Under the pieces are notes generated by a model, which did no database searches, was not told the origin of the DNA, and saw only the letters and a program-made list of their open reading frames with translations. Shown piece after piece: positions 3,656-56,421 of a stretch of 64,000 bases of DNA (positions are counted from its first letter, which is position 1; each line of letters opens with the position of its first letter). This stretch comes from Candidatus Woesebacteria bacterium RBG_13_46_13. GTDB taxonomy: Bacteria > Patescibacteriota > Microgenomatia > UBA8517. The DNA is taken from assembly GCA_001791995.1 (NCBI GenBank), contig MGFR01000003.1, forward strand, positions 89,543 to 153,542. The letters run 5' to 3'. Made by a program: the position numbers and the translations under genes.

Positions 3656-6601
3656 CTATTTGTAAGGCGACTCTTGCAGGAATTTCCCAGTATAGGACCC
3701 ATCGTTTTTCTTGATATCGACAACCGTCCCTTTGGCTACGACATTTCCTCCGTCTTCGCCTCCTTCGGGTCCCAAATCAATAATCCAATCAGCATTTTTG
3801 ATTACGTCCAAATTATGCTCTATCAGAAATACCGAGTTGCCTTTATCCACCAAAAGCCTCAGCACCTTTAATAGCCGCTCCACGTCCGCAAAGTGGAGCC
3901 CGGTTGTGGGTTCATCGAGAATATATACGGTTTTACCGGTGGCCCTTTTGGAAAGCTCTGTTGCCAACTTAACCCTTTGGGCCTCACCTCCCGAGAGCGT
4001 GGTTGCGGGCTGGCCGAGTTTCATATAGCCCAAACCTACATGTTCCAAGGTTTCCAGTTTGGCCAGAATTTTCGGATGGGAGTGAAAAAACTCGAGCGAA
4101 TCGTTTACCGTCATTGCCAAAACTTCCGCGATATTCTTACCCCTGTAGCTAACCTCCAAGGTTTGAGAGCTATACCTTTTACCCCCACAGACATCGCAGG
4201 TAATCCAAATGTCACTCATAAACTGCATTTCTATCTTTATTTGTCCTTGACCCTCACAGGCTTCACATCTGCCGCCTCTTAGATTGAAAGAAAATCTGCC
4301 TTTCTTAAATCCCATTGCTCTGGCCTCTCTGGTATTGGCAAAAACCTCCCGTACGGGGTCAAAAACTCCGGTATAGGTCGCGGGGTTACTCCTTGGGGTT
4401 CTGCCGATAGGGGATTGGTCGATAAGGATTACCTTGTCGATATTTTCTTTGCCCTCGAGCCTTATAAACTTGCCCACGTTTCCCCTGTAAAGAGGGTTAA
4501 GATAACTGCTTAAAGCGGGAAATAAAGTTTCTACGAGTAAAGTAGATTTACCCGAACCCGACACCCCGGTAATACAAACCAGCTTACCTAAAGGAAAATC
4601 CACATCAATGCCTTTTAGGTTAAATTGTGAAGCTCCGAAGACGGAGAGCGAAACCGGATTTTTGAGCAAAGATTGGGTTTTTAAAATATCTATTCTTCTT
4701 TTTCCGGACATAAACTTACCGGTCAGGGATTTTGGATTTGCTGAAATTTGTTTGGCCGTCCCCGTAGCGACTATCTCTCCCCCATCTTCCCCCGCACCCG
4801 GTCCAAAATCGATGACATGATCTGCGCTTCCGATCATTTCCCTGTCGTGTTCGACCACGACCACTGTGTTTCCCAAATCCCTCAATCTTTTAAGGGTGTC
4901 TATCAGCTTTTTATTGTCCCTTTGGTGAAGCCCGATGGTAGGCTCATCCAAGACATACAAGACTCCGGTTAAGCCCGAGCCTATTTGCGAAGCCAGACGG
5001 ATTCTTTGGGCTTCTCCTCCAGATAAACTCCCCGCTTCCCTATCCAGGGTTAAATATTCCAGACCCACCGAGATTAAAAACTTCAGCCTTTGTTCTATTT
5101 CTTTGATAATTAGCTTCGCAATTTCTTTCTCTCTGGCACTGACTTGGGTGTTTAGATTAAGAGAATTTACCCACTCGAGAGTTTTACTTACCGAGTTTGA
5201 GGTTAAAGCGGATATGGATTGGCTCAAGATGGTTACCGAGAGGGATTCCGGCTTTAGCCTGCTACCCTTACAAGTTGCGCAAAGCTGTTCCCTCATATAT
5301 TTCTCTATTTCTCCTTTGACATAATCTGAAGTCGACTCCCTGTATCTTCTTTCCAAATCGGCAACAATTCCTATAAACCTTTCGTAAATCCGGGTAAAGC
5401 GTCCCCAGCGGTTGGTACCTTCGACCATGTATTCGAAATCTCCTGTTCCGTAAAGCAGAATATCTATTTCGTCGGAAGACAGGTTTTTAATCGGAGTTTT
5501 TGGATCAATACCGTTTTCTTTGCAAACCTCAAGGTAGAGTCTTGAAACCCAAGTGTCGTGTTCGAACATGGTTGCGAAAGGCAGAATTGCCCCTTCGGTA
5601 ATCGATATTTCCGGAGCAAAGATAAAACTAGGTTCCACTTTCAGGATTTTTCCCAAACCAGAGCAGGAAGGACAAGCACCATGAGGAGAGTTGAAAGAAA
5701 AAGTACGGGGTTCTATCTCCGGAATCTGGATATTGTCGGTCGGACAGGCAAATTTCTCGGAGAATAAATGGTTTTCGAATTTCTTGGGATACTCGGGCAT
5801 CTCAAAACCTACGTCCTTAATCTGCGCCAGAACCGCATTGCCTTCCGAAAGATTCAAGGCCTGCTGAAAAGAGTCAGCCAGTCTGGAGCGCAGGTTGTCT
5901 ATAAAAACCTTATCTCTGATGTTGCCGAGACTTAGGCTTAGCTTATCTATAACAACTTCTATGGTGTGCTTATTAGTTTTTATGAGCACAAAGTCTTCCG
6001 ATAAATCTTTGATATACCCGTCAACTCTTAATTGTTTGTAGCCTTTGGCTTTTAGGTTATCGAAAAGGGACGAGAATTCTCCCTTTCTGTCGGAAACGAC
6101 AGGAGAAAGAATCATAAACCTGCCGACTTTGCCCTTCTTGGTTTCTTCACTTATAAGAGAAAAAGATTGTTCGACAATTTGATCAATGGACTGATGTGAG
6201 ATTTCCCTGCCGCAGACGGGACAATGGGGATGGCCGATGCGGGCGAAGAGAAGTCGCAGATAATCGTAGACTTCGGTAACGGTCCCCACCGTAGAGCGTG
6301 GATTTCTGGAGGTAGTTTTTTGATCGATGGAAATTGCGGGGGATAATCCTTCTATGTGGTCCACATCCGGCTTTTCCATAATCCCCAAAAATTGCCGGGC
6401 ATAAGTCGAAAGACTCTCCACATAACGCCTTTGACCTTCCGCGTAGAGAGTATCGAAAGCCAAAGAGCTTTTGCCACTACCGGAAACTCCCGTCAGAACA
6501 ACAAGTTTGTTCTTGGGTATTTCCAGATTGATATTTTTGAGGTTATGCTGACGCGCCCCTCTTATTCGTATTGTGTTTTCCATAACACGCAAACTTCCCA
6601 T
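3656..6601 (-). CDS. uvrA: Excinuclease ABC subunit A (UvrA). The true start is probably the internal MENTIRIRGARQHNLKN at 6583.
   Basis: Two ABC ATPase modules (GVSGSGKSSLAFD ; GVSGSGKSTLLVE), LSGGEAQR signatures, zinc-finger CxxC pairs. 981 aa. Confidence 0.95.
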   Translation of the reverse strand: MGSLRVMENTIRIRGARQHNLKNINLEIPKNKLVVLTGVSGSGKSSLAFDTLYAEGQRRYVESLSTYARQFLGIMEKPDVDHIEGLSPAISIDQKTTSRNPRSTVGTVTEVYDYLRLLFARIGHPHCPVCGREISHQSIDQIVEQSFSLISEETKKGKVGRFMILSPVVSDRKGEFSSLFDNLKAKGYKQLRVDGYIKDLSEDFVLIKTNKHTIEVVIDKLSLSLGNIRDKVFIDNLRSRLADSFQQALNLSEGNAVLAQIKDVGFEMPEYPKKFENHLFSEKFACPTDNIQIPEIEPRTFSFNSPHGACPSCSGLGKILKVEPSFIFAPEISITEGAILPFATMFEHDTWVSRLYLEVCKENGIDPKTPIKNLSSDEIDILLYGTGDFEYMVEGTNRWGRFTRIYERFIGIVADLERRYRESTSDYVKGEIEKYMREQLCATCKGSRLKPESLSVTILSQSISALTSNSVSKTLEWVNSLNLNTQVSAREKEIAKLIIKEIEQRLKFLISVGLEYLTLDREAGSLSGGEAQRIRLASQIGSGLTGVLYVLDEPTIGLHQRDNKKLIDTLKRLRDLGNTVVVVEHDREMIGSADHVIDFGPGAGEDGGEIVATGTAKQISANPKSLTGKFMSGKRRIDILKTQSLLKNPVSLSVFGASQFNLKGIDVDFPLGKLVCITGVSGSGKSTLLVETLFPALSSYLNPLYRGNVGKFIRLEGKENIDKVILIDQSPIGRTPRSNPATYTGVFDPVREVFANTREARAMGFKKGRFSFNLRGGRCEACEGQGQIKIEMQFMSDIWITCDVCGGKRYSSQTLEVSYRGKNIAEVLAMTVNDSLEFFHSHPKILAKLETLEHVGLGYMKLGQPATTLSGGEAQRVKLATELSKRATGKTVYILDEPTTGLHFADVERLLKVLRLLVDKGNSVFLIEHNLDVIKNADWIIDLGPEGGEDGGNVVAKGTVVDIKKNDGSYTGKFLQESPYK

Positions 6602-17654: not shown

Positions 17655-18335
17655 TCATTCTAGTTGGGAGAGGATAATCTGGTCAAGGAGTGGGGCCAGT
17701 TCGTCTTGGGAGGTCTTGGCTTTGATGTCCGCCTCGGCCAGAAGTCCGATGATTTTTTCGATTTGTTCTTTGGAAAACCTTTTTGATTGGCCACCGATCT
17801 TCAAAATTCTCCAGTCCTGGGCGTAGGGTAACTTCGTCAAATTGAGTTTCGCCCAGTATAAATCCCGGACGTGCCGGGACAAAAGAAAGAAAACCCGCTC
17901 AATAGGTTCCTTTTTTAACAGCTCATGGAAAAGCTGGAGAACTTTTACTGAATTGCCGGGATAGAAAGCATCAAGAAAGGCAAAAATTGTCTTGGGAAGC
18001 TTATACTGTTCAACCCGGGCCTTCTTTCCGACCGCTTTCCTGGTGCTTGCGTTCAGAAAACCGTCGTTGAGAATTACCAGCGTCCCGGGAAGTTTCTCCT
18101 GCTCGGCTAGGGCCCACTTGAGTTCTTTACTCGTCAGCTTGGCTCCATTTTCGACAATAAAGAGCCGCTCTCCCTCAAAAAGGCTGGTTTTAGCAAGCTC
18201 CTCCGCGAAGGAAACGGGCCCTCCCGACTCATAATGGAAAATTTGCCAGTTGCGCTTTTTGGCCACCGCCACGAAAGAGGCCAGTCTTTGGCGTAAGGCA
18301 GAATAATCGTCTCCTTCCAGGAATATGATTTTCAT
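17655..18335 (-). CDS. holA: DNA polymerase III delta subunit-like (short HolA)
   Basis: 226 aa. Pattern of a clamp-loader delta N-terminal/AAA-lid (IFLEGDD ... LFIVEN ... LKKEPIERVFFLLSRHVRDL). Shorter than canonical delta, so the call is tentative. Confidence 0.5.
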   Translation of the reverse strand: MKIIFLEGDDYSALRQRLASFVAVAKKRNWQIFHYESGGPVSFAEELAKTSLFEGERLFIVENGAKLTSKELKWALAEQEKLPGTLVILNDGFLNASTRKAVGKKARVEQYKLPKTIFAFLDAFYPGNSVKVLQLFHELLKKEPIERVFFLLSRHVRDLYWAKLNLTKLPYAQDWRILKIGGQSKRFSKEQIEKIIGLLAEADIKAKTSQDELAPLLDQIILSQLE

Positions 18336-18748
18336 TGGATGTATTTTAGATATTGTGCGACTAAATATCTAACCTTGTCGTAAAATTTGTTTTTTCCTCT
18401 TCGGGTATGGGGCAGTAGACTTCCGGAAAAGTTTCTGGGAATGTGGGCTATCTCATGAAGTAGTACCTTGTCCTTTTCCGTCTCCCCCAGCCTATCGAAC
18501 TTTTCCGATATCACCTCGATAATATAGCTTGGTCTGGTACTCAGAGTAATCTGCCAGATTCTGGACAAACCCCAGATTCTGGAGATGGCCCGGGTATTGG
18601 TGCCTTGTGACCTGACGCAATAGATGGATCGTGTGTCAAGCCAGTCTAAATGAAGATTCTTAGCAAGAACGATAACCCTTTTTTTGATATCGGGGGCGGG
18701 GTTCCACTTAACAGCTCTGCCTTTATTCGATTTTGTATACTTCCGCAC
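18332..18748 (-). CDS. Small putative Zn-metallopeptidase (HEIAH motif)
   Basis: 138 aa with LLHEIAHIPRNF (HExxH). Family not assignable by eye. Confidence 0.4.
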   Translation of the reverse strand: MRKYTKSNKGRAVKWNPAPDIKKRVIVLAKNLHLDWLDTRSIYCVRSQGTNTRAISRIWGLSRIWQITLSTRPSYIIEVISEKFDRLGETEKDKVLLHEIAHIPRNFSGSLLPHTRRGKNKFYDKVRYLVAQYLKYIQ

Positions 18749-43455: not shown

Positions 43456-44181
43456 ATGAAACTGAAGCTTGTCAAAAAACAAGACGAGGCCAAAGGAACC
43501 GTCTCTTTTTTCTGGGAACCCGAAAAGAAAGTAAGCTACCTTCCCGGACAGTTTTTTTACTTTACACTTCCCTCGCTTAAGTATCCGGACCCCAGAGGGG
43601 CCACTCGACACTTTACCATTTCATCCTCGCCCACAGAAGAAGGCTTTTTTAGACTATCTACCAGAATACGCGAAGAATCGGGTTACAAAAAAACACTAAA
43701 CGAACTCCCTTTGGGAACCGGGATTGAAGGAGAGGGTCCCAACGGCACTTTTCTCTTGGATGAGGGAGATACCGGCCCTCACGTCTTTTTTGCAGGAGGA
43801 ATAGGAATAACGCCTTTCAGGAGCATTATTAAGTTCGTCGTAGACAAAAACTTAAATATCCCTATCCACCTTATTTATTCAAACTCCATTCCCGAGGAAA
43901 TCGCCTTTAGGAAAGAAATTGAGGAATGGCAAGCCGGTCACCCCAACATCAAAGTGGATATGGCGGTATCCAAGCCCGAAGAATCCAAAGAGAAATGGGA
44001 AGGGTTAACCGGCAGAATCGACGAAAATCTTATTGGTAAACTTCTCCCCAACATTGGCTCCTTAAATTCTATCTTTTGGATTTCGGGACCACCGGCCATG
44101 GTGGATGCGGTAGAGGATTTACTGGGAAAACTTGGAGTTACCTCCAATAAAGTTCGCTCCGAAAAGTTCACCGGCTACTAG
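43456..44181 (+). CDS. FAD/NAD(P)-binding oxidoreductase, ferredoxin-NADP reductase-like
   Basis: RxYS-type FAD motif (TRHFTISSSP), NAD-binding GGIGITP. Confidence 0.65.
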   Translation: MKLKLVKKQDEAKGTVSFFWEPEKKVSYLPGQFFYFTLPSLKYPDPRGATRHFTISSSPTEEGFFRLSTRIREESGYKKTLNELPLGTGIEGEGPNGTFLLDEGDTGPHVFFAGGIGITPFRSIIKFVVDKNLNIPIHLIYSNSIPEEIAFRKEIEEWQAGHPNIKVDMAVSKPEESKEKWEGLTGRIDENLIGKLLPNIGSLNSIFWISGPPAMVDAVEDLLGKLGVTSNKVRSEKFTGY

Positions 44182-44182
44182 G

Positions 44183-44211
44183 TTGCTTCTGAGGCTATCC
44201 AGGTATATACT
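44183..44211 (+). promoter_or_regulatory. Canonical sigma70-type promoter TTGCTT-N17-TATACT for the GC-rich orphan gene
   Basis: Read directly from the sequence. Followed by AAGGAGG 7 nt before the ATG at 44260. Confidence 0.5.
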
Positions 44212-44259
44212 ATGGGCCTGCACATTGACAGGCGAAGCGCAAACAAACAAGGAGGAAGT

Positions 44260-44697
44260 ATGTCTAAACCTTCCGCTGAAACCGTCATGCGAAGGATTCA
44301 CGAGTACTTTGTCAGCCTCTGTACCGCGAAGGGCTGGAAACCCTTCCCCGAGGTTCACGAAAATGCAGGTATCTACCGGTTCTCGGCCAGTAGGGTGGTC
44401 AAGGTCGTAGGGTTTCCCTGGACCGACGTCGAACTCAGAATCGAGTTCGTCAAGGCCGACAGGGGAGCGGTCTTCCTGATCGAGGGGATGAACTTCCACT
44501 CGGACGGGGACCTCTCCGGAGGGATATTCCTCGACCCCGTCGAATTTCTGATTTTCCACGGCAAGGAGTTCTGCTCAATCAATCCCGACGTGGAGAACCA
44601 GAACTGCTGGCACATCGCAGCCCCCAAGGACCTAGATGCGTTTTTCGAGGGCTACGATCGGCTGGCCCAAAGGCTCGGGTACGTGACTCTGTTCTAG
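44260..44697 (+). CDS. Hypothetical protein, GC-rich codon usage unlike neighbouring genes
   Basis: ATG at 44260 with SD AAGGAGG. GC3-rich codons. No recognisable motifs. The track ORF extends upstream to 44212. Confidence 0.55.
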   Translation: MSKPSAETVMRRIHEYFVSLCTAKGWKPFPEVHENAGIYRFSASRVVKVVGFPWTDVELRIEFVKADRGAVFLIEGMNFHSDGDLSGGIFLDPVEFLIFHGKEFCSINPDVENQNCWHIAAPKDLDAFFEGYDRLAQRLGYVTLF

Positions 44698-44787
44698 CAA
44701 GTCCAAGGAAGGACTCTTTTCAGGCCTCTGCCTGAAAATCGTGCGCTTCGCCTGTCCTTCCTTTCAATGGTATAATTCCAGTTAATT

Positions 44788-44859
44788 GCCGATGTAGCTC
44801 AATGGCAGAGCAATCCCTTCGTAAGGGAGAGGTTAGGGGTTCAACTCCTCTCATCGGCT
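44788..44859 (+). tRNA. tRNA-Thr (anticodon CGT)
   Basis: Acceptor GCCGATG/CATCGGC, D-arm GCTC-AATGGCA-GAGC, anticodon loop TTCGTAA, T-arm AGGGG-TTCAACT-CCTCT. Closely resembles E. coli tRNA-Thr(CGU). Confidence 0.8.
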
Positions 44860-44866
44860 CTGAGAT

Positions 44867-51148: not shown

Positions 51149-52027
51149 ATGCAAAAGACAAATCGTTCCAAAAACATTTGCCCGGTATGTAAAAACTCTC
51201 GTATAACCGAATACTGGGCTATGCCGGGCTATAAGCTGGCGAAATGTCCCAAATGCGAGACGGTTTGGGACAAGTTACCCCCCGAAGAGATCTCCGCTAT
51301 TTACGATAAAACCTACTTTATAAATGAAAACCCAAAGGGTGGTTACGCTAATTATTTTGAGGCGATGAGAATTAACCGTAAAACATTTTCGGGCAGATTA
51401 GAAAAAATCGAAAAAACATTGGGCAAAAAAGGCACACTTCTCGATGTCGGCTGTGCCTTGGGAGATTTTCTTGCCGAAGCTAAGACTAGAGGATGGAAAG
51501 ACATCCAGGGAATCGAAATTTCGCATTATGCCGTGGTTTTTGCCAGGGGAAAAGGCCTCAAGGTTAACGAGGGGGTTCTGGAGAATAATTCTTACCCACC
51601 CAACTTCTTCGAAGTTGTTACCTACCAAGACGTAATAGAGCATATTCCAAACCCAAAGGATGAGTTAAAGAAGGCTTACAAGATACTGAAACCCGGTGGG
51701 ATTATCTTCCTTGTTACCCCCGACGTGCGGGGTCTTTGGGCAAAATTATTAGGTCCCCTTTGGTATCATTACAAACCCCGTGAACACATACTCTACTTTT
51801 CTAAAAAGAGCATCGAGGTGGCGCTTGCAAAAGCAGGGTTTAAAAATATCTTAGTGAGAAATACCTATCATGTTTTTTCTCTCGAATATATTTTGAATCG
51901 CCTCCGCTATTACCAGCCTAATTTTTTCGAATTCTTATTGAAGATGGTAAGAAAGACCAAAGTAAAGAACCTCCCGTTTAAGCTCTACACTGGAGAAATT
52001 GAGGCCTGGGGACAAAAACTTCCTTAA
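51149..52027 (+). CDS. Class I SAM-dependent methyltransferase with an N-terminal zinc ribbon
   Basis: CPVCKN...CPKCETVW ribbon. Motif I LLDVGCALGDF. Motif post-I GIEIS. Confidence 0.75.
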   Translation: MQKTNRSKNICPVCKNSRITEYWAMPGYKLAKCPKCETVWDKLPPEEISAIYDKTYFINENPKGGYANYFEAMRINRKTFSGRLEKIEKTLGKKGTLLDVGCALGDFLAEAKTRGWKDIQGIEISHYAVVFARGKGLKVNEGVLENNSYPPNFFEVVTYQDVIEHIPNPKDELKKAYKILKPGGIIFLVTPDVRGLWAKLLGPLWYHYKPREHILYFSKKSIEVALAKAGFKNILVRNTYHVFSLEYILNRLRYYQPNFFEFLLKMVRKTKVKNLPFKLYTGEIEAWGQKLP

Positions 52028-52149
52028 CTTCTACCATATTATCTGAAGTGGTGTAACCAAAGAAGAAAGATCTGGTGGGGCGGAAGCGGGACACAAGCGG
52101 AGGTTATCCGTTTATGCGCGCTTACACGCCCCACCGTGCACCCGAGGTG

Positions 52150-52368
52150 CTACTTGCGAAAGAACTGCACCATGGCAATGAGCAGGATGGCGATGGCAGC
52201 CCAGAAGGCGAAGAACGGGATGAAGATGGAGAGCAATCCCCCACCTTCGACAACCGTCACCGTGGACTTCACGATCTGCGCCTCTTCCCAGGCGAAAGCC
52301 GCCAGGATTCCAGCCACCGTGCAGATGATCAACCAGCTCAACCTCTTGGCGATAAAGCCGGTAGTCAC
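52150..52368 (-). CDS. Small two-TM membrane protein (about 72 aa), hypothetical, GC-rich
   Basis: GTG start at 52368, 5 nt after AAGGAGG. Two hydrophobic helices. Perfect promoter upstream. The track ORF extends to 52446 across the promoter. Confidence 0.5.
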   Translation of the reverse strand: MTTGFIAKRLSWLIICTVAGILAAFAWEEAQIVKSTVTVVEGGGLLSIFIPFFAFWAAIAILLIAMVQFFRK

Positions 52369-52395
52369 GAGAACCTCCTTTTTAGGTGCGAAATT

Positions 52396-52446
52396 TGTCC
52401 TATTTAGGACATAGGATATTATACCCCCCACCCGCGAAGATATCAA
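52396..52446 (-). promoter_or_regulatory. Minus-strand promoter TTGATA-N17-TATAAT, with the inverted repeat TGTCCTA-N2-TAGGACA (52396-52411) over the predicted transcription start
   Basis: -35 at 52441-52446 and -10 at 52418-52423 (minus-strand sense), read directly. The IR is a candidate operator. Confidence 0.5.
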
Positions 52447-52453
52447 CTATAGG

Positions 52454-52482
52454 TTGATTTTTGGCCTTGACCGTGCTACAAT
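52454..52482 (+). promoter_or_regulatory. Divergent plus-strand promoter TTGATT-N17-TACAAT for the 52515 gene
   Basis: Read directly. About 33 nt leader with AAGGAGG 5 nt before the ATG. Confidence 0.45.
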
Positions 52483-52514
52483 TCCCCATTCGCTCTTTTC
52501 CATAAGGAGGAATC

Positions 52515-53045
52515 ATGGAGACCAAGCAGCAGAGAGTTGGTCGCGCCTTTTCCGTTCTGGCAATCATCGTCATGTTCGGGCTCGTGGTGGGTCTATCCTG
52601 GAGTGATCTGGGGGAGAAAACCTCGACCTTTTCGGTCTGGATTCCCGCCCCAGAGCCTCCGGAAGAAACCGCCAGACTCCTGGCGCGTTGGCAAAGTGAA
52701 GGTGGGCTGGAGTGGTCAATAGAGGAGTTCCTATCCTTCACTCCTCACCCCGCCTTCGTTTTTCCCATGGAGGATGAATTCGGCAGGGAAGTACTAACCT
52801 ACGTGGGAGAGTTCGGACCTGATTACCCGCTGATGTTCGCTCGGGGGTTCATAAGGATGCCTTTCAGACACTACGTGAACTATCCCAACCATCAGTGGAA
52901 CCTTGAACCTGAAGGGCCCAGAGGAGCCAACCTGATCCTGCATTCGTGGGGCTACGGTTTCCTACCCTGGTCCCTGGCGGTCATCCTGATCTGTATCATG
53001 CTCTACGGCTGGTACCGGATCCGCCTCTGGCTGAGGAGCCTCTAA
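52515..53045 (+). CDS. Hypothetical membrane protein (N- and C-terminal TM helices), GC-rich
   Basis: Strong SD. Helices AFSVLAIIVMFGLVVGL and LPWSLAVILICIMLYGW. No recognisable domain. Confidence 0.55.
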   Translation: METKQQRVGRAFSVLAIIVMFGLVVGLSWSDLGEKTSTFSVWIPAPEPPEETARLLARWQSEGGLEWSIEEFLSFTPHPAFVFPMEDEFGREVLTYVGEFGPDYPLMFARGFIRMPFRHYVNYPNHQWNLEPEGPRGANLILHSWGYGFLPWSLAVILICIMLYGWYRIRLWLRSL

Positions 53046-53071
53046 TTCCCGGAAAGGAGCAATAAGCACCC

Positions 53072-53126
53072 TGAAGACGCAAGTCTTCCGACACGAAAGT
53101 GTTGAAAAAAGGGTGCTTTGCTTTTT
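53072..53126 (+). repeat. Copy A of a ~53-nt structured 3'-end element: two GNRA-capped hairpins (GAAGAC-GCAA-GTCTTC ; CGACAC-GAAA-GTGTTG), then A6-GC-rich-T6
   Basis: Shares a 24-nt identical core (TTCCGACACGAAAGTGTTGAAAAA) with copy B at 56292-56344. Sits 27 nt after the stop of the 52515 gene. Confidence 0.6.
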
Positions 53127-53193
53127 TAATTGAAGAACAAGGTTGCGCACCGGGTGGTGTTTCAGCGGTTAATCCGCATCGCAACCTTCTGAC

Positions 53194-53583
53194 CTACTTC
53201 CAGAACTCCCACCACTTCTTCGCCGGGATATTGGGGATGGCAATCATCCTCTTCCCCAGTGGGGGTGGGGCTGCCTTGCCGGAACGGGCTGCATTCTCCT
53301 GCTTTAGGAGCTCCCTGGACTTCTCCGGCAGAACCCCGGCCTCGTTGGCGTAGAAGCGGAACCAATAGGGCAGGGACTTGCGAATTCCTGCTTCCTGGCT
53401 GGTATCCACGACCATACGCCAGACGACCACCGTCGCGTCCTGGGGCATCAGCATCTGCTGACTCTTGATGAGGAATCCCCGAACCTCCCTTTCGACCTTG
53501 ACAATTGCCTGGTTTGCCACCTTCAACAGCACGTCTCTGTCCTTGCTGTCGAAGTCGAGCCAGAACTCCAAAGTCATGTCCAT
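53194..53583 (-). CDS. Hypothetical protein, GC-rich
   Basis: SD AAGGAGG 6 nt before the ATG at 53583. 129 aa. No family recognised. Confidence 0.5.
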   Translation of the reverse strand: MDMTLEFWLDFDSKDRDVLLKVANQAIVKVEREVRGFLIKSQQMLMPQDATVVVWRMVVDTSQEAGIRKSLPYWFRFYANEAGVLPEKSRELLKQENAARSGKAAPPPLGKRMIAIPNIPAKKWWEFWK

Positions 53584-53669
53584 CGCCGGCCTCCTTTAGG
53601 GCTTAGGGTATGAATTCTGGAAATTGTGAATGCGCGAAAAGACGGCCTATTTTAACACAATTAGACCAT

Positions 53670-54311
53670 TTATGAAGTTTTGAGGTAGGAGATAAGCTTG
53701 ACCGCTATTATATATAGAACGGCCGGAACAGAGAAAATGTAGAAAATCACAAAAGGGAAAGAGCGGGAATCGCTACCGATAAAGAAGGAATGCACCGCAA
53801 CCAACAAGAACACCGCATAATTTAGGATGTGGAACTTTCTCCAGTTTTCCCTCCACCAGGGCAAGGTTCTAAGTTTGGCTGCCAAAACAGCCGCCGAGAC
53901 CAGCCAAAACGATAGTCTTCCAAGGGTATAGAAAAATTCCGGGCGGGTTTTACACATCAGGCAAAAATCGGTAAAAACATAAAAGGGATCAATGACGTGC
54001 CTGGCGATGTAGTTAAAGACCAAAAGAGCCAGGGGGTGAAGAAGAATTAGACTATAAGCCACTGCCCCTTCGGTCAGGTGCCATTTAAAGACCCAGGCTC
54101 CTAGCTTCTCTATCCATTTCTGCATAAAAGAGCCCAAAACAACCTGCCAGAAAAGAAGGACAAAGGCCACTAGCCCCACAACTCTTTGGATAAGATTCAC
54201 AACAAGCAGGTTGTTTAAAGGAACGGGAGATCTAAGAATAAAAATCAAAACGGTAACCGGACCAAGGAGAATGGATAGAAGCCAGACAAGAAGAAAGAGC
54301 TTTTTGTTCAT
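53670..54311 (-). CDS. Six-TM membrane protein with a bis-heme His pattern like ferric-reductase/MsrQ-type transmembrane domains
   Basis: His pairs spaced 13-14 residues apart in predicted TM3 (WHLTEGAVAYSLILLH) and TM5 (FHILNYAVFLLVAVH). Codon usage is AT-richer, matching the host. A TATAAT sits 7 nt before the ATG (leaderless-like). Confidence 0.5.
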   Translation of the reverse strand: MNKKLFLLVWLLSILLGPVTVLIFILRSPVPLNNLLVVNLIQRVVGLVAFVLLFWQVVLGSFMQKWIEKLGAWVFKWHLTEGAVAYSLILLHPLALLVFNYIARHVIDPFYVFTDFCLMCKTRPEFFYTLGRLSFWLVSAAVLAAKLRTLPWWRENWRKFHILNYAVFLLVAVHSFFIGSDSRSFPFVIFYIFSVPAVLYIIAVKLISYLKTS

Positions 54312-54324
54312 TGAAGTAATTATA

Positions 54325-54368
54325 ACAAAAAAAGAGCCTGATCTTTGGCTTATGCCTCAATCAGGCTC
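54325..54368 (-). terminator. Intrinsic terminator (GAGCCTGAT...ATCAGGCTC 9-bp stem + T7) after the 54932-54375 gene
   Basis: Read directly. The T-run is on the minus strand. Confidence 0.65.
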
Positions 54369-54374
54369 CTACTC

Positions 54375-54932
54375 CTAGTACGACAACTCGTCCCACAGGG
54401 GACAGCGAGGAATATACCTCCATCTCTCCCCTTCCTCGAGCCGGCGAACGAAAGCGAACCCGCGGCATTCGAGACCCGGGAAAACAATGAGGTCGGCAAT
54501 GAACGCCTCGTGGTTATCCTCACGTTCGGATTCGGCGACGGCATAGGAAAAGCGCCGGATGTCGAAGACATACTCCTTTCCGACTCTGTCGTCGTAGGCG
54601 TTCATGCTGACATCCCAACCGCTATGAGCCAGGTCAAGCGTGAACATGACCTTGGTAGTACCGTCGAAGGCTGTAGGCCGAAATCCCAATCTCAACCTTC
54701 CGTGCCACCGCCATTCCGGGGCCAGTATGTGCGTAGAATCGAGAGAAGCGAAGAGTCCGAAATAGTACGTTTCTCTCCACATCTCTTCGGTCCTCATCAC
54801 ATCCGGCTGTATCGCTGTAATCAATCCCGGAAAGGGACTCTCCCACCCCTCGTGTACGGGTACGTCCGTGTTGGGGAAGAAGGCGATGATGACGACAGCC
54901 AACGGAACGATCCAAAGCAGATGCTTTTTCAT
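54375..54932 (-). CDS. Secreted hypothetical protein, GC-rich
   Basis: SD AGGAGG. Signal peptide MKKHLLWIVPLAVVIIAFF. 185 aa. Confidence 0.55.
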   Translation of the reverse strand: MKKHLLWIVPLAVVIIAFFPNTDVPVHEGWESPFPGLITAIQPDVMRTEEMWRETYYFGLFASLDSTHILAPEWRWHGRLRLGFRPTAFDGTTKVMFTLDLAHSGWDVSMNAYDDRVGKEYVFDIRRFSYAVAESEREDNHEAFIADLIVFPGLECRGFAFVRRLEEGERWRYIPRCPLWDELSY

Positions 54933-54964
54933 AGCTCCTCCTTTGATTTTGTAAGAGTGCGACT

Positions 54965-55006
54965 CTAGGATAGCGATATTATAGTCCTAGGTATATGAAA
55001 TATCAA
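54965..55006 (-). promoter_or_regulatory. Minus-strand promoter TTGATA-N17-TATAAT for the 54932 gene. The inverted repeat CTAGGA-N14-TCCTAG (54965-54990) brackets the -10.
   Basis: -35 at 55001-55006, -10 at 54978-54983 (minus sense). The IR shares the TAGGA/TCCTA half-site with the 52396-52411 IR. Confidence 0.5.
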
Positions 55007-55037
55007 ATTATAGGCTTAGACCTAAACATACAAATTC

Positions 55038-55066
55038 TTGCTAAATTTGAGGCTATAGGGTATAAT
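55038..55066 (+). promoter_or_regulatory. Plus-strand promoter TTGCTA-N17-TATAAT for the 55122 gene. The leader contains a small hairpin TCCGC-TCGG-GCGGA (55074-55087).
   Basis: Read directly. Back-to-back with the minus-strand promoter. Confidence 0.5.
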
Positions 55067-55121
55067 ACTGGCATCCGCTCGGGCGGAAATTCGCACTTTT
55101 CAATACTCATCAGGAGGAACT

Positions 55122-56276
55122 ATGGCCAAACGTGAAGGACGCTGGGACTGCCGCTCATGCGGCACGAAAGGCGTGAGAGGGCGTTTCAAGTACTGTTCGC
55201 AGTGCGGAAGCCCCCGTCCCGCCAACGTCAAGTTCTACCTCCCGGAAGGAGAACCGGAGGTAACCGATCCGAAACTCCTGGCCCTTGCAGGTGCAGGTCC
55301 AGACTGGACTTGCGAGCACTGCAGCCAGGACAATGTCGGCACTTCCGCTTTCTGCGGACAGTGCGGTGCCAAAAAGGACGGGAGCCCTTCCCGTAAAACC
55401 AAGACCTACGGTCTTGGAAGCATTCCCCGCTCGGGAGATGAATTCCCCGAAGAGGAAAAACCCGCATCCGCGGTTTATTCCCAGGAGACAAGTACGCCGA
55501 AGGGCAGTCTCTTTTCTAAACTGAAGATCCCTGCGGCTATTTGTGCAGGAGCGGCCTTTCTGGGTCTTTTGGGATTTCTGCTTTTCGCACGCCACGACGT
55601 GCCCTTGACCGTCTCGGGCTTCGCCTGGGAAAGAACGGTCACCGTCGAAGAGTACCGCACTGTCGTGGAAGAGGATTGGTCCATCCCCGCCGGAGGCAGA
55701 TACCAAAGCGAGGGACAGGCTATCCACCACTACGACAGCGTTGAGGTCGGGTCCCATCAGGAACCGTATCAAGACTGTCATCAGGAAGTTTCTGGCTCGC
55801 ATCAGGAGTGCAGCCAAGAAGTTACAGGCTACGACTCCTATGTCTGCGGGAGCAGTGATGACGGCAATGGTTTCTTTTCGGATGTTTACTGCGACCGGCC
55901 TGAGTACTCGACCGTCTGTGACTCGGTCACGGACTACTCGACCGTCTGTGACACCTTGTACCGAACGGTCACGGATTACGAGCAGGTACCCGTCTACGCG
56001 ACGAGGTATACCTACGAAATTGAACGTTGGGTCTTTGACCGAACCGAGGTTTCGCAGGGGTCGGACCATACGGCCTTTTGGCCTCCCTTCACCCTTGAGG
56101 ATAACGAGAGGGAGTCGGGGAGGAACGAGGCCTACGAAGTTCTCTTCGTCGACGACGAGGAGAAAACCTACTCCTATACGGTTGATTTAGCCGCTTGGCA
56201 GATCTTCGAGGTCGGCCAGAACTATACCGGCAAGGTCAACACCTTAGGAGTACTGACAGAAGTATCCGATGAGTAA
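55122..56276 (+). CDS. Membrane protein with an N-terminal double zinc ribbon (two CxxC...CxxC pairs), one TM helix and an acidic Cys/His-containing C-terminal domain with internal repeats
   Basis: CRSCGTKGVRGRFKYCSQCG and CEHCSQDNVGTSAFCGQCG. TM AAICAGAAFLGLLGFLLF. In-frame 18-bp perfect direct repeat TACTCGACCGTCTGTGAC at 55905 and 55935 (YSTVCD x2). Strong SD. Confidence 0.6.
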   Translation: MAKREGRWDCRSCGTKGVRGRFKYCSQCGSPRPANVKFYLPEGEPEVTDPKLLALAGAGPDWTCEHCSQDNVGTSAFCGQCGAKKDGSPSRKTKTYGLGSIPRSGDEFPEEEKPASAVYSQETSTPKGSLFSKLKIPAAICAGAAFLGLLGFLLFARHDVPLTVSGFAWERTVTVEEYRTVVEEDWSIPAGGRYQSEGQAIHHYDSVEVGSHQEPYQDCHQEVSGSHQECSQEVTGYDSYVCGSSDDGNGFFSDVYCDRPEYSTVCDSVTDYSTVCDTLYRTVTDYEQVPVYATRYTYEIERWVFDRTEVSQGSDHTAFWPPFTLEDNERESGRNEAYEVLFVDDEEKTYSYTVDLAAWQIFEVGQNYTGKVNTLGVLTEVSDE

Positions 56277-56291
56277 GACAAGAAGCGCCCC

Positions 56292-56344
56292 GAATCCGCA
56301 AGGATTCCGACACGAAAGTGTTGAAAAAGGGGCGCTTGTTTTTT
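56292..56344 (+). repeat. Copy B of the structured 3'-end element (GAATCC-GCAA-GGATTC ; CGACAC-GAAA-GTGTTG ; A5-GGGGCGCTTG-T6). Abuts the 3' end of tRNA-Val on the opposite strand.
   Basis: The first hairpin differs from copy A on both arms (GAAGAC/GTCTTC to GAATCC/GGATTC) yet stays perfectly paired. Lies 16 nt after the stop of the 55122 gene. Confidence 0.6.
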
Positions 56345-56349
56345 GGAGG

Positions 56350-56421
56350 TGGTCGCTGAGGGATTCGAACCCCCGGCCTTCGCAATGTGAATGCGACGCT
56401 CTACCGCTGAGCCAAGCGACC
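56350..56421 (-). tRNA. tRNA-Val (anticodon CAC)
   Basis: Reverse complement folds with acceptor GGTCGCT/AGCGACC, D-arm GCTC-AGCGGTA-GAGC, anticodon stem TCGCA/TGCGA with loop TTCACAT, T-arm GGGGG-TTCGAAT-CCCTC, discriminator A. Confidence 0.8.

Follow-up and report, generated by a model that had tools for sequence, protein, structure and literature searches.

A proposed moron-like gene cassette with invariant complementary segments in both untranslated regions beside tRNA-Thr in Candidatus Woesebacteria

Background

Very few bacterial mRNAs, hok and icaR among them, are documented to have a conserved pairing of their 5' and 3' ends with a regulatory role. In Staphylococcus aureus, pairing of the 3' untranslated region (UTR) of icaR mRNA with its 5' UTR controls translation and RNase III-dependent decay (PMC3868564), and the tac/fbi pairing of hok closes the mRNA over a long distance (PMC9841398). 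The phage moron, as defined in phages of the HK97/HK022 type (PMC3594210), is an independent unit in which one or a few open reading frames (ORFs) are flanked by their own promoter and a terminator-like hairpin, and which differs in composition from its neighbours and is absent between the same two genes of relatives. Here a locus is described that resembles each of these in part. It lies in a 64,000-nt stretch of contig MGFR01000003.1 of Candidatus Woesebacteria bacterium RBG_13_46_13 (the window), where an ORF of 145 amino acids at 44260-44697 (+), belonging to a protein family without known function, is placed between an FNR-like oxidoreductase gene (43456-44181) and a tRNA-Thr(CGT) gene (44788-44860). 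An earlier note on this DNA had given the product as 146 amino acids, one too many, and had read the gene as a foreign-looking patch beside a tRNA, suggesting that one donor or mobile agent had visited two tRNA loci. The comparisons below place it in a conserved unit of ~585 bp (about 44182-44766), running from a -35 box to just past a 3' stem and corresponding to the indel relative to empty sites in relatives; this unit is referred to as the cassette. The probability that it is a moron-like accessory gene cassette whose mRNA ends pair to control stability and/or translation is put at about 0.5.

Like a moron, the cassette is an independent unit with its own predicted promoter and a terminator-like hairpin flanking one ORF. 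Its composition differs from that of its neighbours, as it also does in the homologous contigs L005, L011 and L035, and it is absent between the same two genes in contigs L038, L039 and L040. Unlike a moron, it is found in a chromosome region without phage genes, its neighbours encoding the FNR-like protein, an Ig-like surface protein, Wzy and a glycosyltransferase; it is old, having diverged in place to ~35% identity; and it has invariant complementary UTR arms, which are foreign to the moron concept. The cassette fits every part of the moron description except for phage location.

Complementary arms in the untranslated regions

The ORF is bracketed by a perfect 15-nt inverted repeat, GACAGGCGAAGCGCA at 44227-44241 and TGCGCTTCGCCTGTC at 44742-44756. 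The upstream member, the 5' arm (GACAGGCGAAGCGC(A), + strand), lies in the 5' UTR, and its complement, the 3' arm ((U)GCGCUUCGCCUGUC, + strand), lies in the 3' UTR. The 14-nt cores of the two arms, GACAGGCGAAGCGC and GCGCTTCGCCTGTC, were identical in 11/11 cassettes, including those whose proteins are only ~30% identical, and the invariant blocks exceed the complementary cores on both sides (5', AC-N-TTGACAGGCGAAGCGCA; 3', GCGCTTCGCCTGTC-N-TT). Where the cassettes share an invariant Gly, Leu or Ala, the third codon position is scrambled among them; neutral sites are therefore saturated, and the arms must be under strong purifying selection.

Paired arms were found only in cassettes, and the arm motif is absent elsewhere in the window and in the homologous loci. 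A metagenome scan for the motif returned 18 matches, five of which had both arms, and all five were cassettes; L020 and L034 were checked and rejected. Matches in viral contigs (two) and genome contigs (one) consisted of a single arm in unrelated GC contexts and were taken as chance. A literature search for the arm sequence found nothing.

An inverted repeat around a gene could also be a pair of DNA sites at which a recombinase or transposase inverts or moves the gene. The perfect and invariant repeat of 14-15 bp would suit this reading, as would the copies in varied contexts and in tandem, a direct repeat of ~50 nt around one copy, and the gain or loss of the cassette among relatives (all described below). 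However, the unit that is present or absent and is kept across contexts includes a promoter ~44 nt outside the left arm, so the arms are not its termini. In this the cassette differs from insertion sequences and miniature inverted-repeat transposable elements, as its inverted repeats are internal and the promoter outside the left repeat moves with the unit; no target-site duplication was seen at the window site, and no transposase domain was found. It also differs from an invertible DNA switch, as every cassette locus recovered (~12 distinct) was in the ON orientation, with neither recombinase nor transposase in any of them. The confinement of the arm motif to the cassette also counts against DNA sites, as does the embedding of the 3' arm in a covarying RNA fold that includes G.U pairs. 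This explanation is considered improbable.

The arms could alternatively be operators for a DNA- or RNA-binding protein, possibly the cassette product itself acting in autoregulation, with their complementarity being the by-product of a site present in two orientations. Strict invariance instead of covariation is what such a site would show, the 5' arm is just downstream of the proposed transcription start, where repressors act, and the protein has a conserved basic C-terminal helix. Against this, no DNA- or RNA-binding domain was recognised by sequence or fold, isoelectric points in the family span 5.2-9.0, an operator would be oddly placed 500 bp downstream within a structured 3' UTR, and invariance can also stem from several alternative pairings of each arm. 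Operators are regarded as an unlikely explanation, if a somewhat better one than recombination sites.

Predicted structure of the transcript

The 3' UTR is predicted to fold (44705-44763, +) into an outer stem of AAGGAAGGAC (44705-44714) with GUCCUUCCUU (44754-44763) and an inner hairpin (44717-44725/44730-44738). Folded alone, it gave the same predicted structure in 10/10 homologues folded, with the 3' arm single-stranded in a multiloop. The sequence of the inner hairpin varies by lineage (CAGGC/GCCUG, CAAGC/GCUUG or GCAGGG/CCCUUGC). A covariance model of the 3' UTR recovered 11/11 cassettes at E ≤2e-13 and nothing else significant in 143 kb. By pair counting, 96% of cells were paired and six pairs had compensatory changes, a level reached by 0/500 shuffles; in slid controls 42-56% were paired. 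Several of the cells are G.U, which fits an RNA transcribed from the + strand.

In the window transcript, pairing of the 5' arm with the 3' arm was present in both the minimum free energy and the centroid structures (whole transcript, z = -3.4), and the partition function gave this pairing a probability of ~1.0 in 11/11 transcripts. This long-range helix and the outer 3' stem, which covariation supports, cross each other and have a GUC in common, and on the 3' strand the arm pairing and the outer-stem pairing are contiguous (UGCGCUUCGCCUGUCCUUCCUU). In these models, the helix and the outer stem would be either alternatives or parts of a pseudoknot with a 22-bp coaxial stack.

Local alternatives are predicted at the 5' end as well. 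A 5'-terminal hairpin, GCCUG-CACAUUGA-CAGGC (44216-44233, +), overlaps the 5' arm and would compete with the long-range pairing. In the isolated 5' UTR a comparable hairpin that uses part of the arm is predicted in most homologues; its 3' side is invariant, and so it carries no compensatory evidence. Further downstream (44249-44274, +), the Shine-Dalgarno (SD) sequence AAGGAGG (44249-44255), which precedes the start codon (44260), can be paired in the prediction with CCUUCC in codons 4-5 (44269-44274). The SD variants (GGAGGAAG or GAGGGAAA) go with matching downstream variants (CCUUCC or ACUUCCC), and codons 2, 4 and 5 keep their synonymous positions (TCT, xCT, TCC), which are saturated elsewhere. 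The ORF was more structured than synonymous-codon shuffles in 9/10 homologues (z from +0.65 to -3.8), compared with z of about +0.7 for the FNR and Ig-like genes. In Rfam searches of the window only the tRNAs matched, and the UTRs gave no match even at E ≤10.

As in icaR, a 3' UTR segment is predicted to pair with the 5' UTR of its own mRNA. Unlike in icaR, where the 3' UTR pairs with the SD itself, the cassette has its 5' arm ~8 nt upstream of the SD and a 3' UTR of only ~70 nt; no sequence is common to the two. A possible likeness to hok is in the predicted long-distance 5'/3' UTR pairing that would close the mRNA, in the local alternative pairings, and in the pairing of the SD with a downstream box. 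These same features would be expected if the cassette were a hok-like type I toxin-antitoxin module with an mRNA kept inert by 5'-3' fold-back. However, the product is a soluble protein of 145 amino acids in place of a small toxic peptide, no conserved small hydrophobic ORF was found in any frame, no family-wide antisense promoter was noticed, and a Sok-like antisense RNA is presumably lacking. The cassette helix is also strictly invariant instead of covarying, and no sequence or Rfam relationship to hok was found. A toxin-antitoxin module of this type is therefore extremely improbable.

Presence, absence and age of the cassette

The order of FNR-like gene, ORF, tRNA-Thr, Ig-like (Big_6/Glucodextran_B) protein, Wzy and GT2 is common to four other genomes (L005-L010, L011, L035 and L036), GT2 being included only where the contig extends that far. 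The FNR/tRNA-Thr site is filled in the window, L036, L011, L005 and L035, and empty in the related Woesebacteria contigs L038, L039 and L040, whose FNR is 73-75% identical to that of the window. In the empty sites 34-47 nt, which include the extended -10 element of the tRNA promoter, separate the FNR stop codon from tRNA-Thr. This element (TGgTATAAT, 44768-44776, +) is kept in filled and empty sites (gaTGgTATAAT and cgaTGTATAAT in the empty sites of L038 and L039), belongs to the host locus and forms the right boundary of the cassette. The cassette is a dispensable insert that is not present in all relatives, as shown by comparison of the locus, one of the checks proposed in the earlier note. 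With about ten clusters in the ORF family against >1000 FNR homologues, it is a rare accessory element at the FNR/tRNA-Thr site.

Compared between lineages, and with the close pair L005-L035 set aside, amino-acid identity was 0.29-0.40 for the ORF, 0.69-0.76 for FNR, 0.55-0.66 for the Ig-like protein and 0.47-0.56 for Wzy, which makes the ORF the fastest-evolving of the compared genes at the locus; within the close pair, ORF identity was 0.79. The same site is filled in three lineages, with ORFs diverged to 0.32-0.40 identity, and the GC content at third codon positions (GC3) of the ORF is 0.69-0.76 in every genome, compared with 0.40-0.59 in its neighbours. As GC3 was kept at this level despite long divergence, the bias is maintained and not a relic of recent transfer, and the insertion is, on this comparative evidence, old. 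Deviant GC3 beside a tRNA gene need not indicate recent horizontal transfer; here the bias outlasted a long divergence.

In the FNR identity matrix, the filled L011 falls together with the empty contigs L038 and L039 (0.83-0.86), as do the filled L005 and L035 with the empty L040 (0.81-0.82); this calls for two or more events of gain or loss. The grouping was taken from the matrix, which is contradicted by a bootstrap neighbour-joining tree; labels in the tree appear to be scrambled, and it was not used. The tRNA-Thr(CGT) genes are of two acceptor types, GCCGATG... (window, 44788-44860; L011, L036, L038 and L039) and GCCAACG... (L005, 6525-6600; L040, ~1008-1080), which track the FNR sub-clusters and not cassette presence.

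Non-syntenic copies, in which the unit is kept from the -35 box to the 3' stem, were found in L001, L025 and, as a tandem pair, L013. The L001 copy has a DUF5678 gene on one side and a glycosyltransferase gene on the other, and is bracketed by an imperfect direct repeat of ~50 nt (5193-5238 and 5816-5869; ACYGTCTCATTT ... GGWTTCGAGACCCGYATGCTCA), which was not called as a tRNA by ARAGORN and possibly represents a target duplication or a small repeat of another kind. In L025 the cassette is found downstream of tRNA-Asp, a LysM gene and tRNA-Gly, with neither FNR nor tRNA-Thr. L013 (1-1237) carries two cassettes ~16 nt apart, each with promoter, both arms and 3' structure; the encoded proteins are strongly diverged, P0006 having 54% and P0010 26% identity to that of the window. 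Separately, the 3' end of tRNA-Asp in L025 (194-228) is repeated 79 nt downstream (273-307) at 83% identity, ~3.4 kb upstream of the cassette, and resembles an att-like scar left behind by an integrated element since lost.

These comparisons bear on an origin along the lines suggested in the earlier note, a recently acquired island or prophage remnant put at tRNA-Thr by the same agent as a GC-rich island at 52-56 kb. Deviant GC3, a promoter and SD pattern in common with that island, presence or absence among relatives and an orphan protein all speak for it, and the cassette resembles tRNA-associated genomic islands in being deviant DNA by a tRNA gene that varies among relatives. Against it, the ORFs at the same site in three lineages are only 0.32-0.40 identical and all are GC3-rich, so the insertion is old and the bias maintained. 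Unlike tRNA-associated islands, the cassette is a single gene in ~585 bp on the 5' side of the tRNA, and the copies in L001, L025 and L013 are not by tRNA-Thr. No integrase was found among the scanned flanking ORFs or the genes called in homologous loci, there are no phage genes nearby, and no match was found in phage or plasmid collections or in viral contigs. The earlier note had remarked on the lack of an integrase or clear att repeat, and this was borne out; the degenerate direct repeats of the tRNA-Thr 3' end that it had proposed as a check were not found, and neither tRNA end has a second copy in the window with 3 or fewer mismatches. Recent, tRNA-targeted acquisition is now thought distinctly unlikely.

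Composition and expression signals

The ORF has a GC3 of 0.760 and a GC content of 0.562. The mean GC3 of 58 window ORFs is 0.506 (standard deviation 0.081), which upholds the bias reported before; among window ORFs comparable values were found only in the 52-56 kb island (0.65-0.80), and the four neighbours of the ORF are at 0.43-0.49. Third-position C (0.47 versus 0.26) is the main source of the excess and the excess of G is smaller. The enrichment is mostly of NNC over NNU codons (Phe, Tyr, His, Ile and Val), and Lys, Glu and Gln codons ending in G are likewise enriched.

The promoter of the cassette (44183-44211, +) begins 2 nt past the FNR stop codon and is composed of a -35 box TTGCTT (44183-44188), a 17-nt spacer and a -10 box TATACT (44206-44211), its role as promoter being suggested by sequence and conservation. 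Both boxes are kept in most cassettes, non-syntenic copies included, with TTGCGT in L001 and TTGCTT displaced by one column in L011. The earlier description of a consensus promoter stands in so far as TTGCTT-N17-TATACT is present and conserved; the -35 box, however, matches the Escherichia coli consensus TTGACA at only 3/6 positions, and a generic promoter scanner made no call at the site. Similarly, AAGGAGG is present as described and at a spacing that is functional but, at 4 nt to the ATG, somewhat shorter than ideal. The claim that these signals are common to the 52-56 kb island was confirmed. TTGCT-N17-19-TATAMT occurs twice in 64 kb, at the cassette and at island gene 55122, and AAGGAGG-N4-ATG is also found at island ORFs 52515 and 54932(-), with AAGGAGG-N6-ATG at island ORF 53583(-). 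AAGGAGG-N3-9-ATG occurs six times in the window, and 4/6 precede GC-rich ORFs (the cassette ORF and three island genes). The ORF ends 90 nt before tRNA-Thr (stop at 44697; tRNA at 44788-44860, +, by ARAGORN and by Rfam at 63.5 bits), as had been stated.

High GC3 and strong signals could simply reflect very high expression, with translational selection for C-ending codons and with UTR structures that are ordinary stabilisers and a terminator. The predominance of NNC over NNU, the strong SD and the near-consensus -10 box are in line with this. However, ribosomal protein L19 in the window has a GC3 of 0.45 and no GC3 excess, the G-ending codons of Lys, Glu and Gln are enriched too, and the invariant complementary arms are left unexplained. 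Expression alone is thus judged unlikely as a full account, to about the same degree as operators; it overlaps in part with pairing of the mRNA ends and does not exclude it.

Proposed role of the mRNA ends

In the preferred explanation, the cassette (~44182-44766) is a stand-alone accessory gene with its own predicted promoter, a strong SD, a single ORF and a terminator-like 3' structure, belonging to a tiny family confined to Woesebacteria-type contigs, and its protein evolves fast outside a conserved C-terminal helix. In the mRNA, the invariant 14-nt segment of the 5' UTR would pair with the invariant 14-nt segment in the multiloop of the covarying 3' UTR. Each partner would have a local alternative: the 5'-terminal hairpin for the 5' arm, the outer 3' stem, through the common GUC, for the 3' arm, and codons 4-5 for the SD. 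Neither arm could then change, because each has local alternative pairings. Such pairing of the ends, which may stack on the 3' stem to give a quasi-continuous helix of 22 bp, would set mRNA lifetime and/or gate translation, and high GC3 would be maintained as support for a compact, stable RNA. Both the transcription start, likely just downstream of the -10 box, and the transcript 3' end, presumably just past the 3' stem, are predictions of this scheme, as are pairing of the arms in vivo and any effect on stability or translation. What the comparisons show directly is the anatomy of the cassette and its conservation, its presence or absence in relatives and the covariation in its 3' UTR.

A more tentative extension, possible but less probable than the explanation as a whole, is that the 22-bp pseudoknotted helix is a previously undescribed bacterial 'closed-loop' mRNA element, read as double-stranded RNA (e.g. 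by RNase III or a dedicated factor) and carried with a portable gene cassette of the candidate phyla radiation (CPR). If this were true, the persistent GC3 bias would be the footprint of selection on whole-mRNA architecture and not of foreign origin.

Several points weigh against pairing of the ends. Only ~11 cassette sequences exist, and several are related. The alignment behind the pair counts was fitted to the model, which somewhat favours structure. The long-range helix crosses the outer 3' stem, and nested folding offers no means of choosing between them; the helix never varies, so covariation cannot confirm it, and strict invariance of the arms is equally expected of a protein-binding site. 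The structure excess of the ORF is moderate, with none in the L011 homologue. The half-matching -35 box and a weak U-tract past the 3' stem also detract, and the argument against plain codon optimisation, drawn from the GC3 of L19, has a single reference gene.

What remains distinctive is that the arms were frozen while the proteins drifted to ~30% identity, and that no curated RNA family matches them. For CPR biology, the cassette is a rare, portable and probably strongly expressed accessory gene beside a surface-polysaccharide cluster, which is where strain-level variation is expected to matter.

Protein family and gene annotation

For the 145-amino-acid protein, four relatives were found among 5.8 billion sequences, ten clusters in all by a profile search, and six by an exhaustive HMMER scan of 1.84 billion representatives. 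All were on Woesebacteria or Patescibacteria-type contigs. By comparison, FNR had >1000 homologues, and at least 120 clusters were ≥62% identical. The N-terminal two-thirds of the protein is variable, and the C-terminus, APKDLDAFFEGYDRLAxRLGYxTLF(E), is nearly invariant. A hidden RNA element in the C-terminal codons was considered and ruled out, as synonymous sites vary freely there; the constraint therefore acts on the protein. An AlphaFold2 model of the product (44260-44697, +), a soluble alpha/beta orphan protein, had a predicted local distance difference test score of 88 and a predicted template modelling score of 0.84, and shows an N-terminal helix, a four-stranded antiparallel sheet, short helices and the C-terminal helix. 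Foldseek searches of the model against the PDB and BFVD returned no significant fold match, and no significant match to the sequence was found in Pfam, PHROGs, PADLOC or PDB sequences, in keeping with the previous report of no recognisable motif.

In public annotation (OGM09708.1 and related entries) the ORF has 161 amino acids and begins at an upstream ATG at 44212. This codon falls between the -10 box and the likely transcription start, overlapping the -10/start region. The start is placed here at 44260, as supported by the SD and by the conserved MS(K/N)(P/T)S N-termini of homologues, and a later third-party annotation (HJX59223.1, 145 amino acids) agrees with this SD-supported start. An antisense ORF of 146 amino acids (44119-44559, -) overlaps the cassette. 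Long antisense ORFs are present in homologues as well, and some contigs annotate them as genes (L037, 980-1516); the simplest explanation of the window's antisense ORF is that it arises as a by-product of a sense frame rich in GC3.

Other features of the window

The GC-rich island at 52000-56340 adjoins tRNA-Val (56348-56421, -) and carries several orphan ORFs, each with its own promoter and a AGGAGGAA-NN(N)-ATG start region. Island gene 55122 has a TTGCT-N17-TATAAT promoter whose spacer has TGAGGCTAT in common with the cassette promoter. The + strand ORFs at 52515-53045 and 55122-56276 end in near-identical compound terminators, in which an outer stem AAGCRCCC/GGGYGCTT with a T-run surrounds two hairpins, one of them common to both (CCGACACGAAAGTGTTGAAAAA, 53088-53109 and 56307-56328). 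A run of otherwise housekeeping genes, RuvC and the DNA polymerase III delta subunit among them, also contains an ORF at 18332-18748 (-) whose domain is a 'putative phage metallopeptidase' (PF18894, E=5e-18).

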